Shown: positions 1 to 5,948 of the stretch, piece by piece
How the letters are laid out: every line of letters begins with the position of its first letter
Position numbering within the stretch: the stretch's first letter is position 1
Virus record (IMG/VR): IMGVR_UViG_2579778745_000009
Source: a virus
Lineage: Duplodnaviria > Heunggongvirae > Uroviricota > Caudoviricetes
Strand: one strand, 5' to 3'
DNA: 5,948 nucleotides
Notes under the pieces: generated by a model
Told to the model about the DNA's origin: nothing
What the model saw: only the letters and a program-made list of their open reading frames with translations
Databases searched by the model: none
Program-made: the position numbers and the translations under genes

Positions 1-1
1 G

Positions 2-754
2 AAAGGGATAAGTGAAATCGCTGGCTATTATCCCAGAGTTATATCAGATGATTTGTTTTACGCTGTACAGGAAATTCGGTTGGCACCTTTTGGTATTAGC
101 AATAGTAGCAAGAATCCTATGCTAATAAATCTACTTCGAACAGTTATGAAGTGTGAGGCTTGTGGTAATACCATGATTGTTCATGCGGTATCTGGAAGTT
201 TGCATGGCTATTATGTTTGTCCGATGAGAAGATTACATCGATGTGACAGGCCATCAATAAAAAGAGATTTGGTTGATTATAATATCATTAATGAATTGCT
301 TTTTAATTGTAGCAAAATTCAACCAGTTGAAAACAAGAAAGATGCTAATGAAACTTTAGAGTTAAAAATTATTGAGCTTCAGATGAAAATTAATAATTTA
401 ATCGTTGCATTGTCTGTCGCGCCTGAAGTTACCGCTATAGCAGAGAAAATAAGACTATTAGATAAGGAATTACGAAGGGCTTCGGTATCATTGAAAACTT
501 TGAAGAGTAAAGGTGTAAATTCATTCAGTGATTTTTATGCTATTGACTTAACCAGTAAAAATGGACGAGAGTTATGCCGTACACTTGCCTATAAAACATT
601 CGAAAAAATCATAATTAATACGGATAATAAAACCTGTGATATCTATTTTATGAATGGCATTGTTTTTAAACACTATCCTTTAATGAAAGTAATATCCGCC
701 CAGCAGGCGATAAGTGCTCTCAAATATATGGTTGATGGTGAGATTTATTTCTAA
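2..754 (+). CDS. ybcK: Large serine recombinase, C-terminal part; gene continues upstream of the window
   Basis: Frame 2 is open from nt 2 to the TAA at 752-754; the track ORF 53..754 is only its TTG-initiated tail. The translation has a four-Cys zinc ribbon (CEACGNT...YYVCPMRRLHRC) followed by a long predicted coiled coil (ELKIIELQMKINNLIVAL...KELRRASVSLKTLKS), the typical C-terminal architecture of large serine recombinases. Consistent with DLP12 YbcK as I recall it. Confidence 0.8.
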   Translation, partial: KGISEIAGYYPRVISDDLFYAVQEIRLAPFGISNSSKNPMLINLLRTVMKCEACGNTMIVHAVSGSLHGYYVCPMRRLHRCDRPSIKRDLVDYNIINELLFNCSKIQPVENKKDANETLELKIIELQMKINNLIVALSVAPEVTAIAEKIRLLDKELRRASVSLKTLKSKGVNSFSDFYAIDLTSKNGRELCRTLAYKTFEKIIINTDNKTCDIYFMNGIVFKHYPLMKVISAQQAISALKYMVDGEIYF

Positions 755-1135
755 ATAATGATCTCGGATTTTAAGTTATGCTATGGTGATAAAGTGCAAG
801 ACAGAATTAATTATCTTTGACGAAACTTAATGGGTAATTACTTTGTTTGCTCCCACAAGCGAGTTTTGTACGGCTGTATTGGGGTAGTAAATGAGCTATA
901 CAATCTTAATCATTTGTTAGGTGAGAACTCTTGGTCGCAGATTCAAATACTGAAAATACGTGACAAATTATTATGAGCAAAATGGTGTATGTCACGTATT
1001 TTGAATGGTAGGTTAAAAAATAACACCGACTTTCGTAGGTATTACTAATAATAAAGCAGAGTTTTTAGATAGTATCAATGTGCTTTGTGTATATTGTGGC
1101 AAATAATTGGGTTGGGGGTACAATTGTGATTGCTT

Positions 1136-1165
1136 TTGCATAAACATTGCGCCTTTATGCATAAT
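1136..1165 (+). promoter_or_regulatory. Candidate sigma70 promoter for ybcL-ybcM, overlapped by an 8-bp inverted repeat (possible operator)
   Basis: TTGCAT at 1136-1141, 18-bp spacer, CATAAT at 1160-1165, about 55 bp upstream of the ybcL ATG. The inverted repeat TGCATAAA (1137-1144) / TTTATGCA (1154-1161) spans the -35 and -10 elements. Motif reading only. Confidence 0.3.
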
Positions 1166-1218
1166 GAGATAAAGGAATATCAAATAAAATAACGATAGGT
1201 CATAACAAAGAGGTTTTT

Positions 1219-1770
1219 ATGAAAACACTTATCGTTTCAACTGTATTGGCATTCATAACATTTTCTGCGCAGGCTGCAGCATTTCAGGTCACTAGTAATG
1301 AAATAAAAACAGGAGAGCAACTTACAACGTCTCATGTCTTTTCTGGATTTGGGTGTGAAGGTGGTAATACATCGCCCTCATTAACCTGGTCTGGTGTTCC
1401 TGAAGGTACCAAAAGCTTTGCCGTAACTGTATATGATCCAGATGCACCTACAGGCAGTGGTTGGTGGCATTGGACTGTTGTTAATATTCCAGCAACAATA
1501 ACATATTTGCCCGTTGATGCAGGGAGACGTGATGGAACAAAACTGCCGACTGGTGCTGTTCAAGGCCGAAATGATTTTGGCTATGCTGGGTTTGGTGGCG
1601 CATGTCCTCCTAAAGGAGATAAACCACATCATTACCAGTTTAAAGTATGGGCTCTAAAAACTGAAAAGATTCCTGTAGATTCTAACTCCAGCGGAGCGTT
1701 AGTTGGTTATATGCTTAATGCTAATAAAATCGCAACCGCTGAGATAACACCAGTTTATGAGATAAAGTAG
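1219..1770 (+). CDS. ybcL: Secreted PEBP/RKIP-family protein (YbcL/YbhB family)
   Basis: 183-aa ORF with an AGAGG ribosome-binding site upstream of the ATG. N-terminal Sec signal peptide MKTLIVSTVLAFITFSAQA|AAF. Contains the PEBP-family motifs YDPDAPTG and GDKPHHYQF. Matches E. coli YbcL as I recall it. Confidence 0.9.
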   Translation: MKTLIVSTVLAFITFSAQAAAFQVTSNEIKTGEQLTTSHVFSGFGCEGGNTSPSLTWSGVPEGTKSFAVTVYDPDAPTGSGWWHWTVVNIPATITYLPVDAGRRDGTKLPTGAVQGRNDFGYAGFGGACPPKGDKPHHYQFKVWALKTEKIPVDSNSSGALVGYMLNANKIATAEITPVYEIK

Positions 1771-1779
1771 GGTGAGAGT

Positions 1780-2577
1780 ATGCTGGCAAGAGGTAAGACT
1801 AACTTAAAGATCGAAGAAATACGGATGCATAAACATCATGAGATTCATAGGGTTAAGCCTCTTATGCCAGCTTTGTGTCGTATCCGTCAGGGAAAGAAAG
1901 TTATCAATTGGGAGACGCATACTTTAACTGTTGATAATAATCAAATAATATTATTTCCTTGTGGTTATGAATTTTATATTGAGAATTATCCTGAAGCAGG
2001 GCTTTATCTTGCAGAAATGCTTTACTTACCCATTGATTTAATTGAGAGTTTCCAAAAACTTTATACGGTAACTGATCAAATACGTAACAAAACAAGTTTC
2101 TTTTTACCTCAGAATCCTGAGTTAATATATTGTTGGGAGCAACTAAAAACATCTGTTTCCCGAGGCTTCTCAACTAAAATTCAGGAGCACTTAGCAATGG
2201 GCGTTCTACTTTCGTTAGGAGTGAATCATGTTAATCATTTACTTTTATCATATAGTAAACAATCATTGATAAGTCGTTGTTATAACCTGCTGCTATCCGA
2301 ACCCGGCACAAAATGGACAGCAAACAAGGTTGCTCGATATCTCTACATTTCTGTTTCTACATTACATCGCCGTCTAGCAAGCGAGGGGGTAAGTTTCCAA
2401 AGTATACTGGACGATGTGAGGTTAAATAATGCGTTGTCTGCTATACAAACGACGGTAAAACCTATAAGCGAGATTGCCAGAGAAAATGGTTATAAGTGTC
2501 CTTCTCGTTTTACTGAAAGATTTCATAATCGTTTTAATATAACACCAAGAGAGATAAGAAAAGCTTCCAGAGAGTAA
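1780..2577 (+). CDS. ybcM: AraC/XylS-family transcriptional regulator
   Basis: 265-aa ORF beginning 9 bp after the ybcL stop with a GGTGAGAG ribosome-binding site. The C-terminal ~100 aa form a typical AraC-type double helix-turn-helix ([17 protein letters not shown]...[33 protein letters not shown]). AT-rich like ybcL. Confidence 0.85.
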
Positions 2578-2609
2578 AAGTGTTTTAAGAAGGAGCAATT
2601 CTATCGATT

Positions 2610-2638
2610 TTGATTTTGGGAAATCAACACGGCATAAT
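2610..2638 (+). promoter_or_regulatory. Candidate sigma70 promoter for the nin-region operon
   Basis: TTGATT at 2610-2615, exactly 17-bp spacer, CATAAT at 2633-2638. The predicted transcription start falls at the foot of the 2642-2670 hairpin. Motif reading only. Confidence 0.35.
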
Positions 2639-2641
2639 TAT

Positions 2642-2670
2642 GTCACCGGAGCCTGAACAACTCCGGTGAC
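2642..2670 (+). other. Perfect 10-bp stem / 9-nt loop hairpin: ybcM terminator, or 5'-leader structure/operator for the nin operon
   Basis: GTCACCGGAG (2642-2651) and CTCCGGTGAC (2661-2670) are perfect reverse complements. Followed by TTCTGCGC, a weak U-tract. Lies 65 bp after the ybcM stop and 24 bp before the ylcH ATG, at the AT-rich to GC-rich transition. Confidence 0.35.
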
Positions 2671-2693
2671 TTCTGCGCTAAACGGGGACGTTT

Positions 2694-2795
2694 ATGCGCA
2701 CATACAATCCAAACTCTCTTCTCCCTTCACAGATGCAGAAATGCACCTGCAATTCTTTGCATCTAGCGTTTGACCTCTGCGGAGGTGAAGCGTGA
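2694..2795 (+). CDS. ylcH: Small Cys-containing protein (33 aa), first gene of the nin-region operon
   Basis: ATG at 2694 with GGGGA five nt upstream; translates to [33 protein letters not shown]. Its TGA (2793-2795) overlaps the ybcN GTG start (2792) in a GTGA coupling overlap. Below the length cutoff of the supplied ORF track. Position matches DLP12 ylcH as I recall it. Confidence 0.45.
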
Positions 2796-3247
2796 ACCTC
2801 TCACAAGACGGCATCAAATTACATCGCGGCAACTTCACCGCTATCGGTCGGCAGATCCAGCCTTATCTGGAGGAGGGCAAATGCTTTCGCATGGTGCTTA
2901 AACCGTGGCGTGAGAAACGCAGTCTTTCCCAGAATGCACTCAGCCACATGTGGTACAGCGAAATCAGTGAATACCTCATCAGCAGGGGTAAAACGTTCGC
3001 CACTCCAGCTTGGGTAAAAGATGCTCTCAAACACACATATCTCGGTTATGAAACCAAAGACCTGGTTGATGTCGTAACCGGTGATATCACCACTATCCAG
3101 TCGTTACGCCATACCTCCGATCTTGATACCGGAGAGATGTATGTCTTCCTGTGTAAGGTTGAAGCCTGGGCGGTGAATATTGGCTGCCACCTGACTATTC
3201 CGCAGAGCTGCGAGTTCCAGCTGCTCCGCGACAAGCAGGAGGCGTAA
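2792..3247 (+). CDS. ybcN: NinB/Orf-family protein (lambda NinB recombination-mediator homolog; reported DNA base-flipping protein)
   Basis: 151-aa ORF with a GTG start and GGAGG six nt upstream. The [18 protein letters not shown] segment resembles the RSLDQN core of lambda NinB. Occupies the ninB-equivalent position ahead of ninE. Confidence 0.85.
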
Positions 3248-3417
3248 TGGCTACACCGCTTATTCGTGTCATGAACGGACACATCTACAGAGTATCAAAT
3301 CGTCGTAAGCGTAAGCCTGAGCTGAAGCCATCCGAAATACCAACACTGCTCGGATATACCGCTAGCCTGGTTGATAAAAAATGGTTGCGACTGGCAGCAA
3401 GGAGGAATCATGGCTGA
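3247..3417 (+). CDS. ninE: NinE-family small phage protein (56 aa)
   Basis: ATG at 3247 overlaps the ybcN TAA by 1 nt (TAATG), with AGGAGG upstream. Translates to [56 protein letters not shown]. Not in the ORF track because of its size. Confidence 0.75.
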   Translation: MATPLIRVMNGHIYRVSNRRKRKPELKPSEIPTLLGYTASLVDKKWLRLAARRNHG

Positions 3418-3700
3418 TTTGAGAAAAGCAGCGCGTGGTCGGGAATGCCAGGTAAGAATCCCTGGCGTATGTAATGGCAATTCTGAAACGTCTGTACTGG
3501 CACATATCCGGCTGGCTGGATTGTGCGGTACCGGTATCAAACCGCCAGACCTGATTGCCACCATTGCATGTTCTGCCTGCCACGACGAAATCGACCGCCG
3601 CACACATTTTGTCGATGCTGCATATGCAAAAGAATGCGCGCTGGAAGGTATGGCGAGAACACAGGTTATCTGGCTGAAAGAGGGGGTTATTAAGGCGTGA
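3410..3700 (+). CDS. ybcO: YbcO-family protein (DUF1364, as I recall), Cys/His-rich putative metal-dependent nuclease
   Basis: ATG at 3410 preceded by AGGAGG, and overlapping the ninE stop by 8 nt. 96 aa with Cys at positions 13, 21, 39, 55 and 58 plus His 59 (..[23 protein letters not shown]..). The track ORF start at 3371 is a spurious upstream TTG extension. Confidence 0.85.
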
Positions 3701-4059
3701 ATACCTACAGTATCACATTACCCTGGCCTCCGAGCAATAATCGCTATTACCGCCATAATCGCGGGCGCACGCACGTCAGTGCAGAGGGGCAGGCATACCG
3801 CGATAACGTCGCCCGAATCATTAAAAGCGCAATGCTGGATATCGGCCTGGCTATGCCTGTGAAAATCCGCATTGAGTGCCACATGCCGGATCGCCGTCGC
3901 CGTGACCTGGATAATCTGCAAAAAGCCGCTTTTGACGCACTCACTAAAGCAGGTTTCTGGCTGGATGATGCTCAGGTCGTTGATTACCGCGTTGTGAAGA
4001 TGCCTGTTACCAAAGGTGGGAGGCTGGAACTGACCATCACCGAAATGGGGAATGAATGA
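3697..4059 (+). CDS. rusA: RusA Holliday-junction resolvase
   Basis: 120-aa ORF with a GTG start overlapping the ybcO stop (GTGA). Sequence [37 protein letters not shown]...[30 protein letters not shown] matches E. coli RusA as I recall it. Confidence 0.9.
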
Positions 4060-4196
4060 TGTTTGAGTTTAATATAGCAGAACTTCTTCGCCACCGCTGG
4101 GGGCGTCTGCGCTTATATCGTTTCCCCGGTTCTGTTTTGACCGATTACCGAATACTGAAGAATTACGCCAAAACCCTGACAGGAGCAGGAGTATGA
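4056..4196 (+). CDS. ylcG: Small phage protein (46 aa)
   Basis: ATG at 4056 overlaps the rusA stop (ATGA). Translates to [46 protein letters not shown], ending at the TGA 4194-4196. Below the track size cutoff. Position matches DLP12 ylcG. Confidence 0.55.
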
Positions 4197-4281
4197 AGTC
4201 AGAGATAACAATCAACTAATACTGTTTTATTGATTTTTGCTTGTAATTGGCGTTCTGGTCTGATTTTTGTGGAGTAAGTTG

Positions 4282-4665
4282 ATGCGTGATATTCAGATGG
4301 TTCTTGAGCGTTGGGGAGCGTGGGCGGCTAATAATCATGAAGATGTGACCTGGTCGTCCATTGCCGCCGGTTTTAAGGGATTAATTCCTTCAAAAGTAAA
4401 ATCTCGCCCGCAATGTTGTGACGATGACGCGATGATCATTTGCGGGTGCATGGCCCGTCTGAAAAAGAACAACAGCGATTTGCACGATTTATTAGTAGAT
4501 TATTATGTAGTTGGTATGACATTCATGTCACTGGCAGGTAAGCATTGCTGCTCTGATGGTTATATCGGGAAAAGGTTACAGAAGGCTGAGGGCATAATTG
4601 AAGGGATGTTAATGGCATTAGATATCCGGTTAGAGATGGATATCGTTGTTAATAACTCTAATTAA
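4282..4665 (+). CDS. quuD: Late-gene antiterminator Q homolog
   Basis: 127-aa ORF from the ATG at 4282 with GGAG seven nt upstream. The track's TTG at 4267 is a less likely start. Cys-rich segments ([25 protein letters not shown]) are compatible with a zinc-binding Q-type antiterminator. Sits immediately after the nin genes, as Q does in lambdoid phages. Confidence 0.85.
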
Positions 4666-4687
4666 TACGCCAATTATTTACTAAAAG

Positions 4688-4716
4688 TTATTAAAAATGG
4701 GGCGTTGAAACGCCCC
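4688..4716 (-). terminator. Intrinsic terminator oriented for the minus strand (porin transcript)
   Basis: Stem GGGGCG (4699-4704) / CGCCCC (4711-4716) with loop TTGAAA. On the minus strand the stem is followed by AUUUUUAAUAA (complement of 4688-4698). On the plus strand it is followed by CAAAAATAAAGGG, with no U-tract. Confidence 0.4.
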
Positions 4717-4756
4717 CAAAAATAAAGGGTAATATATAACAGAAGGTTTGTATAGT

Positions 4757-4804
4757 TAGAAGCAAGGTTGTGCTTCTAAAGGAAGTGGCTTGAGGGAGCC
4801 ACTT
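4757..4804. repeat. Two tandem perfect 8-bp-stem hairpins
   Basis: TAGAAGCA (4757-4764) pairs with TGCTTCTA (4771-4778). AAGTGGCT (4783-4790) pairs with AGCCACTT (4797-4804). Neither is followed by a U-tract on either strand. Confidence 0.4.
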
Positions 4805-4845
4805 ATATGTTGGGGAGGCAAAGCCTCCCACAACATATCTTTTAG
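4805..4845 (+). terminator. Intrinsic terminator oriented for the plus strand (quuD side), possibly bidirectional
   Basis: About 15-bp stem ATATGTTGGGGAGGC (4805-4819) / GCCTCCC-A-CAACATAT (4823-4838) with one bulged A and a 3-nt loop, followed by CTTTTAG. It lies only 16 bp from the porin stop codon on the opposite strand. Confidence 0.5.
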
Positions 4846-4853
4846 TAATCAAA

Positions 4854-5886
4854 TTAGAACTGGTAAACCATACCTACAGCAACGATATCATCGGTAGCAA
4901 CGCCAGATGCTTTCGTGAAATCGCTCTTATCAATCAGGTTGATTTTGTAGTCAACAAAAGTGGACATATTTTTGTTGAAGTAATAGGTTGCACCTACATC
5001 AACATATTCAACCAGGTCCTGATCACCCCAAACACCCAAGTCTTTTCCTTTAGAATGCAGGTAAGCAACGGATGGACGCAGGCCGAAGTCGAACTGATAT
5101 TGTGCAACAGCTTCGAAGTTTTGTGCTTTGTTGGCAATATGGTTATTACCAAAAACAGTCATGTTCTGGGTTTCAGAATAGGTGGTGGCCAGATAGATGT
5201 TGTTCGCATCATATTTCAGACCAGCTGCCCATACTTCAGCATTTTGACCAGAAGCATTCAGACCGTTGTTACCGTAGATAACCTGATTATTAGTGCGATC
5301 AGATTTAGCATAGGTTGCACCTACACCGAATCCTTCATACTCATAAGTAGTGGAGAAACCGAAACCATCACCATTAGCTTCAGTTACGTCAGTGCGGTCA
5401 TTTTTACCCTGATACTGAGCAGCAAAGTTCAGACCATCAACCAGACCAAAGAAGTCGTTGTTACGATAAGTTGCAACACCAGTGGTGCGACCAGTCATGA
5501 ACACATCTGTTTGAGTCCAAGTGTCACCACCGAATTCTGGCAGGACGTCAGTCCACGCACCGATGTCGTATGCTACACCGTAGTTACGGCCGTAATCGAT
5601 GGAGCCGTAGTCACCGAATTTCAGGCCAGCGAAGGCAAGACGGGTTTTATCTTTGGAGGAACCTTGAGATTCAGCGCGGTTGCCTTTGAATTCATATTCC
5701 CACTGACCGAAACCAGTCAGTTGATCGTTGATTTGGGTTTCACCTTTGAAGCCAAGACGGGCATAAGTAGTATCACCATCATCTGCATCATTAGAGGAGA
5801 AGTAGTGCTTAGCATTAACTTTCCCGTACAGATCCAGCTTGTTACTGTCTTTATTATAAATTTCAGCTGCCTGAGCAGACATCGCC
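4854..5886 (-). pseudogene. nmpC: OmpC/PhoE/NmpC(Lc)-family outer-membrane porin, 5'-truncated by IS1 insertion inside the signal-peptide codons
   Basis: Minus-strand ORF translating to ...[29 protein letters not shown]...[12 protein letters not shown], with a typical porin C-terminal Phe and an intact stop at 4854-4856. The reading frame runs without a break into IS1 sequence at 5887, so the track's TTG start at 5900 lies inside IS1. Only the last ~6 signal-peptide residues remain; native promoter, ribosome-binding site, start codon and hydrophobic core are absent. Confidence 0.75.
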
Positions 5887-5948
5887 GGTGATGCTGCCAA
5901 CTTACTGATTTAGTGTATGATGGTGTTTTTGAGGTGCTCCAGTGGCTT
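5887..5948 (+). mobile_element. IS1 insertion sequence, left end (IRL), partial; continues beyond the window
   Basis: 5887-5948 reads GGTGATGCTGCCAACTTACTGATTTAGTGTATGATGGTGTTTTTGAGGTGCTCCAGTGGCTT, which matches the IS1 left terminal inverted repeat and leader as I remember them, with the insA GTG start at IS1 position 56. Confidence 0.85.
5942..5948 (+). CDS. insA: IS1 InsA, first two codons only (GTG GCT ...); the rest is outside the window
   Basis: The GTG at 5942 corresponds to the insA start (InsA begins MASVSISCPSC..., GTG GCT TCT GTT in IS1). Only 7 nt are in the window. Confidence 0.5.

Follow-up and report, generated by a model that had tools for sequence, protein, structure and literature searches.

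The AT-rich emrE-ybcK-ybcL-ybcM block of a DLP12/phage 82-type lambdoid prophage as probable added cargo between ren and the nin genes

The DNA analysed here, a stretch of 5,948 nucleotides from the IMG/VR virus record IMGVR_UViG_2579778745_000009 (Caudoviricetes; hereafter, the window), contains the 3' part of the serine recombinase gene ybcK, the gene pair ybcL-ybcM, the nin module and a porin gene of a lambdoid prophage. We conclude with high confidence that positions 1-2608 represent the right-hand part of a 4.1-kb accessory gene set (emrE, ylcJ-ybcK and ybcL-ybcM) located in the variable slot that separates ren from the nin genes in a DLP12/phage 82-type lambdoid (pro)phage, and that this set is added cargo that has replaced no core module; this confidence is a joint one and covers the identity, composite structure, expression, inferred origin and inferred exchange of the block. 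The whole window was found in hundreds of strains by a megablast search of complete Escherichia coli genomes, with at least 80% of its length covered at one place in 523 genomes. The best record is a prophage of strain E2, which matches the window with 100% identity in two pieces split by an IS3 insertion. In window coordinates, the annotation of strain E2 comprises the 3' end of ybcK (2-754), ybcL (1219-1770), ybcM (1780-2577) and ylcH (2694-2795), and further ybcN, ninE, ybcO, rusA, ylcG, quuD, a porin gene on the minus strand and the end of an IS1 element (5887-5948). ybcK, ybcL and ybcM are already named genes of K-12, and the coordinates considered here had been annotated, and in part characterised, before. 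The features of the window are listed in Table 1.

Table 1. Features identified in the window (positions in nucleotides; GC, G+C content; GC3, G+C content at third codon positions)
Feature	Position	Strand	Description
ybcK 3' part	2..754	+	Last 250 codons and stop of a 508-aa large serine recombinase; ends ...VDGEIYF before the stop; GC 0.335, GC3 0.28
ybcK-ybcL spacer	755..1063		33% GC; specific to this arrangement; holds an unsupported 48-codon open reading frame (ORF) at 830-976
ybcLM upstream regulatory region	1064..1218	+	Sigma-70-like promoter GTGGCA-17-TACAAT at 1096-1124 (consensus scan)
ybcL	1219..1770	+	Periplasmic PEBP/Raf-kinase-inhibitor-like protein, 183 aa; GC 0.42, GC3 0.26
ybcM	1780..2577	+	AraC/XylS-family regulator, 265 aa; GC 0.36, GC3 0.29
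Cassette-specific tail	2578..2608		Downstream of ybcM; 2608 is the last base before the conserved backbone
Conserved boundary element opening the nin module	2609..2693	+	-35 TTGATT 2610-2615; inverted partner AATCAA 2625-2630; -10 CATAAT 2633-2638; hairpin 1 2642-2670; 5' arm and loop of hairpin 2 from 2674
Hairpin 2	2674..2700	+	Loop GGGA; Shine-Dalgarno GGGGA at the stem-loop junction; ylcH AUG (2694) in the 3' arm; minimum free energy structure
ylcH (orf33 of phage 82)	2694..2795	+	33-codon ORF; stop overlaps the GTG start of ybcN (GTGA 2792-2795)
nin module	2792..4196	+	ybcN/ninB-like, ninE, ybcO, rusA, ylcG; GC 0.47-0.53; flank contrasting with the block

The colinear gene order ren-emrE-ybcK-ybcL-ybcM-ylcH-ybcN-ninE-ybcO-rusA-ylcG-Q-porin and the near-identity to the reference place the locus in the DLP12/phage 82 type. 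The K-12-type DLP12 record differs from the window by 4 mismatches in 1-2608 (99.85% identity) and by 27 in 2609-4665 (98.7%), and DLP12 of K-12 (emrE-ylcJ-ybcK-ybcL-ybcM-ylcH-ybcN-ninE-ybcO-rusA-ylcG-quuD-nmpC) contains the identical gene set in the identical order. The sequenced, viable phages PhiR70_1, PhiR34_1 and PhiR68_2 share 99.9-100% identity with the window over 1-2693, and the phage 82 record X92588, which starts at window position 2561, is identical to it through 2750. The best-matching prophage occupies the lambda attachment region (ybhC/bioA) and retains a lambda-like integrase gene and intact immunity and replication genes, whereas DLP12 of K-12 is located at argU and has lost these genes; the two also differ at the porin gene, the 5' end of which contains an IS1 end in the window, whereas an IS5 lies beside it in K-12 DLP12. 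Cargo that is 99.85% alike is carried by prophages with different attachment (att) sites and integrases, namely at ybhC/bioA, the lambda attB region, in strain E2 (locus L001, 3387-4361) and at the tRNA-Arg gene argU in K-12 (locus L020, 1141-2304).

In both the matching prophage and PhiR70_1, the genes upstream of the nin module are arranged in the order of a cI-like repressor gene, cro, a cII-like gene, O, P, ren, emrE, ylcJ, ybcK, ybcL, ybcM, ylcH and ybcN. Because the repressor gene, cro, the cII-like gene, O, P and ren are located directly upstream of emrE, the block lies at the ren/nin junction and nothing has been replaced there. The first-pass annotation of this DNA had supposed that its position normally holds the immunity and replication genes, which the block would replace or displace; these genes are intact upstream of the block in the identical prophage and in PhiR70_1, and the supposition is abandoned. 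In map position the block corresponds to the ren-nin interval of lambda, both following ren and preceding a ninB-like gene, ninE, a gene for a Holliday-junction resolvase and Q. In lambda, ren is followed by ninA/ninB and so on, with the terminators tR2-tR4, and no cargo is known there.

The GC is 0.361 in 1-2640, 0.510 in 2641-4196 and 0.467 in 2641-5948. A single-change-point scan located the maximum-likelihood GC break at 2641; the log-likelihood ratio (LLR) was 34.7 over the whole window and 45.3 over 1-4200, and the highest values in 200 shuffles were 10.8 and 7.4, respectively. The window covers only the right two-thirds of the AT-rich island, which in the full prophage extends from -1459 to 2641 in window coordinates (4.1 kb) and has a GC of 0.360, with flanks of 0.512 (O-P-ren) and 0.511 (nin). 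The two change points, at -1459 and 2641, gave LLRs of 35-68 (null maximum, about 11), and the left one (L001, 10541) lies no more than about 25 bp from the left junctions obtained by comparison with relatives (10537 and 10565). The GC3 of the cargo genes is likewise low (Table 1; emrE, 0.33), compared with 0.61 in ybcN, 0.57 in rusA, 0.46 in ybcO, 0.44 in ninE and 0.55-0.65 in flanking host genes. An index like the codon adaptation index (CAI-like index), for which nine flanking host genes served as the reference set, was 0.45-0.51 for the cargo, 0.43-0.65 for the nin genes (0.43 for ninE) and 0.60-0.73 for the host genes; it sets the cargo apart from the host genes, but the separation from ninE and ylcG is not clean, and GC3 discriminates better. 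The AT-rich block is also uneven, in that ybcL has 42% GC overall, with about 0.5 at the first and second codon positions, and is low in GC3 alone. These results uphold two points made from inspection by eye, namely that 1-2640 is AT-rich with AT-biased codons next to GC-richer nin genes (GC3 of 0.26-0.29 versus 0.44-0.61), and that the switch near 2640 is sharp and coincides with the hairpin at 2642-2670 and a candidate promoter (TTGATT-17-CATAAT at 2610-2638). As regards the GC and codon profiles that had been proposed as a check, the GC break far above the shuffles and the GC3 contrast stood, and the CAI-like index gave a less clean result. The low GC and GC3 of the cargo would record an origin outside the phage backbone.

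Comparison with related phages and prophages showed that homology to relatives with other cargo always resumes at 2609, which agrees with the view that the block is a horizontally acquired accessory module with a true boundary near 2640. In the slot of NCTC11121, ybcK precedes a P22AR-C gene and a hypothetical gene, and the slot of GN05505 contains a DUF4041 gene, P22AR-C and a hypothetical gene without emrE or ybcK. In Perceval, 4A7, D2 and others, ybcK is followed by an inverted alpha/beta hydrolase gene; HK639, CobraSix (Enterobacter) and KO-TP1 (Klebsiella) carry a gene for DNA polymerase III theta and other small genes in the slot, and PhiR30_1 carries genes for an acyltransferase and a lipoprotein. 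Perceval, 4A7, PhiR30_1 and HK639 are thus sequenced phages without ybcLM. A pattern search of IMG/VR for the boundary element that opens the nin module (Table 1) gave at least 120 loci with at least 122 elements. Among the matches listed, ybcL-ybcM is located just upstream of the element in 8 of 122 viral contigs and emrE plus ybcK in 11. In the 52 of these contigs that contain both ren and the element, the two are separated by 759-6,422 bp with a GC of 0.32-0.54 in the slot, about a quarter of the measured slots having a backbone-like GC near 0.50-0.54. Both flanks are present in 96 of the listed contigs, and in 80% of these the nin side exceeds the 1.5 kb upstream of the element by more than 5 GC points.

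The adjacency of ybcK and ybcL was found in 673 of 5,426 complete E. coli genomes, and the nin module in 2,905 of them, which argues that the block is not ancestral to the lineage. Ancestry of the block, named in the first-pass annotation as a finding that would speak against acquisition, is contradicted by these counts (673/2,905 nin-module genomes) and by the 8 of 122 viral contigs, among the matches listed, that carry ybcLM at this place. The accessory units of lambdoid phages known as morons (the Hendrix/Juhala concept) include lambda bor/lom and HK97 gp15. As in morons, presence at one map position is patchy and the base composition is distinct from that of the flanks.

It may also be considered that the GC step, instead of marking a foreign origin, is inherent to the early-region accessory genes of these phages and maintained by selection, for example for H-NS silencing or for regulation, and that the block has co-evolved with the backbone. 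This explanation would account for a slot that is AT-richer than the nin side in most of the contigs compared, whatever genes it contains, and for the flagging of the block promoters as H-NS-associated in genomic SELEX (systematic evolution of ligands by exponential enrichment; PMC3946193). However, the gene content of the slot is wholly different between close relatives, its distribution is patchy and ybcLM homologues exist outside phages; moreover, because about a quarter of the slots have a GC like that of the backbone, AT-richness is no property of the position itself. We consider this explanation very improbable.

The boundary element itself is highly conserved. In 86 distinct sequences, TTGATT marks the start of conservation, and the dozen bases preceding it show no consensus. 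TTGATT and CATAAT are almost invariant, and AATCAA in the spacer between them is an inverted repeat of the -35. The features of the phage 82 GenBank record align with this region as a putative -35 (2610-2615), a -10 (2633-2638), a 'possible regulator-binding site' (2642-2670), a ribosome-binding site and orf33 (2694-2795); the promoter and hairpin at 2610-2670 had therefore already been annotated in 1996. Hairpin 1 consists of a 10-bp stem and a 9-nt loop, and the two-hairpin segment 2636-2700 has a folding energy of -32.1 kcal/mol (z = -6.5 versus shuffles). Across the 86 distinct sequences, 96% of the cells of hairpin 1 are paired with zero double-sided changes, the same as in shuffles, the search pattern itself having constrained the 3' arm; in a 12-sequence set, three pairs show double changes, which derive mostly from one diverged paralogous copy. 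Hairpin 1 is conserved and may be either an RNA stem or a protein-binding palindrome, and its commonest state has a U-G pair, which fits a plus-strand RNA. Hairpin 2 occurs in three versions (50, 31 and 5 of the 86 sequences), TAAAC/GTTTA, ATTTAA/TTAAAT and TTTGAG/CTCAAA, in which both arms are changed and the fold is unchanged; since these versions are fully compensatory with an identical fold, they provide good evidence for a selected structure. No protein-family match was obtained for ylcH in Pfam or PHROG, and no Rfam 15 covariance model matched any part of the window, including the hairpin leader, at E ≤ 1.

The conserved leader was found ahead of the ninB-like gene in at least 122 IMG/VR contigs, and it also occurs in phages of Escherichia, Enterobacter and Klebsiella. 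The DLP12/82-type locus differs in this respect from lambda, for which no promoter-like/two-hairpin/ylcH leader is known. It is possible, although we propose this only tentatively, that the element at 2609-2795 is an uncharacterised leader that starts or gates nin-Q expression without read-through from pR and insulates the late switch from upstream cargo, and that it serves also as a recombination anchor for the exchange of AT-rich cargo among enterobacterial lambdoid phages. Two copies of the element 1.9-2.4 kb apart were observed in some prophages and viral contigs (L005, 7052-7206 and 8988-9141; L043; L047). Those of L005 bracket the cassette of P22AR-C and a hypothetical gene, an arrangement that would be expected if element-element recombination stacks cargo.

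On the right side of the element, Pfam matches were obtained for YbcO and the Q antiterminator, together with a weak match to NinB that is under the cut-off. The nin/rus region of phage 82 is identical to the window in 2561-2750 (0 mismatches), whereas 62 mismatches (4.3%) were found in 2751-4197. The divergence from K-12 is highest (3.3%) in 3248-3700, covering ninE/ybcO, and the nin region is a mosaic itself. The fall of identity to both phage 82 and K-12 just right of the element would fit recombination within the element as cargo is exchanged. The phage 82 record, reportedly a 1996 deposit that accompanied the rusA study by Mahdi, Sharples, Mandal and Lloyd, begins at 2561, and its first 48 bases correspond to the 3' end of ybcM and the tail. 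Judging from these bases, phage 82 very probably carries ybcM as well, and the remainder of its upstream block is presumed.

Full-length YbcK (508 aa) has the domain composition of a large serine recombinase, with Pfam matches to Resolvase (PF00239), Recombinase (PF07508) and Zn_ribbon_recom (PF13408) and a PHROG match to family 95 (integrase). The first-pass annotation had suggested that the block was possibly carried by this recombinase, i.e. that the block or its ybcLM part is the cargo of a YbcK-driven mobile element; in a broader form, YbcK would capture or exchange cassettes directly downstream of its own gene. Beside the complete domain architecture, the DNA just past the ybcK stop is in fact the divergence point of at least three cassettes (ybcLM, the alpha/beta hydrolase gene, and P22AR-C with the hypothetical gene), and a 2,231-bp slot between ren and the element in one viral contig points to a fourth state with little or no cassette after emrE-ylcJ-ybcK. 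In addition, a precise 2,083-bp ylcJ-ybcK segment, made up of ylcJ, ybcK and the 309 bp that follow, sets the phage arrangement apart from a chromosomal island in which emrE is joined directly to ybcL. However, ybcLM occurs without ybcK in 2,628 genomes as well as in E. albertii and Plesiomonas, ybcK occurs with other cassettes, and phages without ybcK have exactly the same right junction at 2609. The left junction is not crisp, as similarity past the ybcK stop fades gradually over about 755-830 with no clear crossover site. The search for att-like or terminal repeats in 1-2900 gave just 14-24-nt direct and inverted matches of 70-93%, which are typical of AT-rich DNA and at chance level, and no evident target duplication was found at the ends of the 2,083-bp segment (in a comparison stated to be at about 90% divergence). 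Furthermore, every ybcK observed lay downstream of emrE in the ren-nin slot. Cargo co-occurring with the recombinase and discrete att-type junctions, as expected of a recombinase-borne element, were thus not found; carriage by YbcK is highly improbable and the suggestion is not retained. A 14-nt inverted repeat (86% complementary) has its two arms, at 1217-1230 and 2578-2591, almost exactly at the ybcL start and the ybcM stop; in DNA this AT-rich, it is taken as probably due to chance.

The spacer segment 764-1063 was found as a single copy in 675 of the 5,426 genomes, in 672 of them at ≥99% identity, and is absent from the ybcK phages with other cassettes and from the emrE-ybcL island. Because it is confined to genomes with this exact arrangement and is almost always ≥99% identical, the configuration of the window is a single, recently spread haplotype. 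The 48-codon ORF at 830-976, which is annotated as hypothetical in PhiR70_1, lies in this haplotype-specific spacer and gave no match in Pfam, PHROG or PADLOC.

Considered in any context, ybcLM was identified in 3,258 of the 5,426 genomes, with 666 at ≥99% and 2,591 at 90-95% identity. These are two sharply separate allele classes, the latter of which corresponds to the arrangement with emrE joined directly to ybcL (2,628/5,426 genomes; 90-92% identity to the phage allele). In the two loci inspected, both from urinary isolates (L004, 8524-10776; L003, 8566-10812), this island has fliE on one side and yedK on the other, and it lacks the 2,083-bp ylcJ-ybcK segment. Its homology to the window spans 1064-2794 and is joined at once to the last 100 bp of quuD (4567-4669), so that ybcN through most of quuD are deleted; its ylcH has lost the start codon. 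Two 'Shigella flexneri' loci gave fragmented multi-frame matches resembling those of low-quality assemblies and were used only to note the same island layout. In E. albertii, emrE-ybcL-ybcM lies beside a P4-type integrase gene without nin genes, and the homology ends at 2682, inside the boundary element. A metagenome-assembled genome (MAG) of Plesiomonas contains a ybcL-ybcM pair (73 and 51% protein identity) with no phage genes. This pair (L012, 5405-6801) lies in a stretch of 37-38% GC beside ychF, pth, an eptA-like gene and lpp, a possible clue to a non-phage origin. A search for YbcM in genome contigs gave matches only in E. coli, E. albertii, Plesiomonas and Shigella.

On this distribution, the phage could also have taken emrE-ybcL-ybcM from the E. 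coli chromosome, with the island by fliE (as seen in the two inspected loci) as the source and the prophage copy as a transduced derivative. The island form is four times commoner than the phage form (2,628 versus 673 genomes) and more diverse, its copies being 97.4-100% identical among themselves, compared with a near-clonal phage form at ≥99%, and the E. albertii genes beside a P4-type integrase gene without nin genes point in the same direction. Yet the island contains phage-backbone DNA past ybcM, namely the boundary element, ylcH to 2794 (without its start codon) and the final 100 bp of quuD, and E. albertii also keeps the boundary element up to 2682. The island and phage alleles are, moreover, 8-10% apart, which excludes a recent transfer between them. 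A chromosomal source is accordingly improbable, and the island is read, from its sequence, as a decayed prophage of which only the cargo would have been kept.

YbcL belongs to the PEBP/RKIP family (Pfam PBP, E = 7e-42, 143 bits; cut-off 24) and is 96% identical to the allele of the uropathogenic E. coli (UPEC) island, 89% to that of E. albertii and 73% to that of Plesiomonas; 7 of 183 positions differ between the window and one island allele. YbcM belongs to the AraC/XylS family (Pfam HTH_18, 61.5 bits with a cut-off of 33.6, and HTH_AraC). In K-12, genomic SELEX located constitutive RpoD promoters, flagged as H-NS-associated, in both the emrE-ybcK and ybcK-ybcL spacers (PMC3946193). The ybcLM promoter listed there, GTGGCA-17-TACAAT, is the site found by our scan, and it lies inside the part that is common to the ybcK-less island, the homology of which begins at 1064. 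YbcM was shown by ChIP-exo (chromatin immunoprecipitation with exonuclease digestion) to bind upstream of ybcLM, implying autoregulation, and at 11 other sites, and deletion of ybcM decreased H2O2 survival eight-fold (PMC8464067). A meeting report describes YbcM as a repressor of motility genes and an inducer of biofilm genes (PMC9966839). The UPEC allele of YbcL reportedly suppresses neutrophil migration, an activity that laboratory alleles lack owing to one residue (PMC4810123). A defence-system role of the cargo was considered and is not supported, as PADLOC gave no match for YbcK, YbcL, YbcM, YlcJ, EmrE or the 48-aa ORF.

ybcLM would thus be expressed from its own sigma-70 promoter at 1096-1124, with the H-NS association and YbcM autoregulation reported for K-12, and would supply the lysogen with a periplasmic PEBP protein and an AraC-type regulator acting on host genes. 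The published YbcM and YbcL data and the promoters reported for K-12 characterise these genes as self-contained, host-directed units, as expected of phage morons, a concept mentioned in PMC6379469. The block resembles morons in its presence or absence among close relatives at one position, a composition unlike that of the flanks and a probable bearing on host physiology rather than phage growth, and would resemble them in having its own promoter and being expressed from the prophage; unlike morons, it shows no clear intrinsic terminator, forms a 4.1-kb stack of several units instead of one gene and includes a large serine recombinase gene.

Taken together, at least three pieces that assort independently would make up the composite block, namely emrE, ylcJ-ybcK and, including the upstream region from 1064, the ybcLM operon. 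The sharp right edge of the block would stem from the promoter-like/two-hairpin/ylcH leader from 2609 that is common to the whole phage group, and homologous recombination, on the right in the leader and on the left in ren, emrE or ybcK, would swap the intervening cargo. Several points weigh against this interpretation. Promoter-like matches are at chance level (7 found versus 6.8 expected in shuffles), so that the assignment of the ybcLM promoter rests on the published K-12 experiments and not on the present sequence analysis. No intrinsic terminator closing ybcLM was found, the terminator-like matches in 700-2900 being weak and within chance in number. Selection, e.g. for H-NS silencing, could maintain the low GC instead of a foreign origin. 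As a clue to the donor, the Plesiomonas pair is just 73 and 51% identical in protein and comes from a single MAG.

Some further features were observed outside the block. The IS3-family element of strain E2 (1.3 kb) is inserted at window position 4636-4641, in the 3' end of quuD, and is not present in the window, which therefore derives from a sibling genome free of this insertion. The IS1 end at 5887-5948 abuts the porin (nmpC/ompC-like) gene at 4854-5900, of which the first 50 coding bases and the promoter are gone in comparison with the intact gene in locus L002; the RefSeq record of strain E2 lists this shortened 'porin OmpC' as intact. The strain E2 prophage also contains, between the repressor and recombination genes (L001, 5318-6828), genes annotated as a SecB-like chaperone, an MqsA-family antitoxin and a hypothetical protein, which form a second accessory cluster outside the window.

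The useful outcome of this analysis is a correction: the block is, in all likelihood, cargo added in the ren-nin slot, and neither a replacement of the immunity and replication genes nor a recombinase-linked element. The same cargo rides on viable phages, and what is probably a decayed emrE-ybcL-ybcM prophage is present in roughly half of the complete E. coli genomes, including those of UPEC lineages, in which YbcL is a reported immune-evasion factor. The conserved leader may mark a boundary of cargo exchange across the phages of Escherichia, Enterobacter and Klebsiella.

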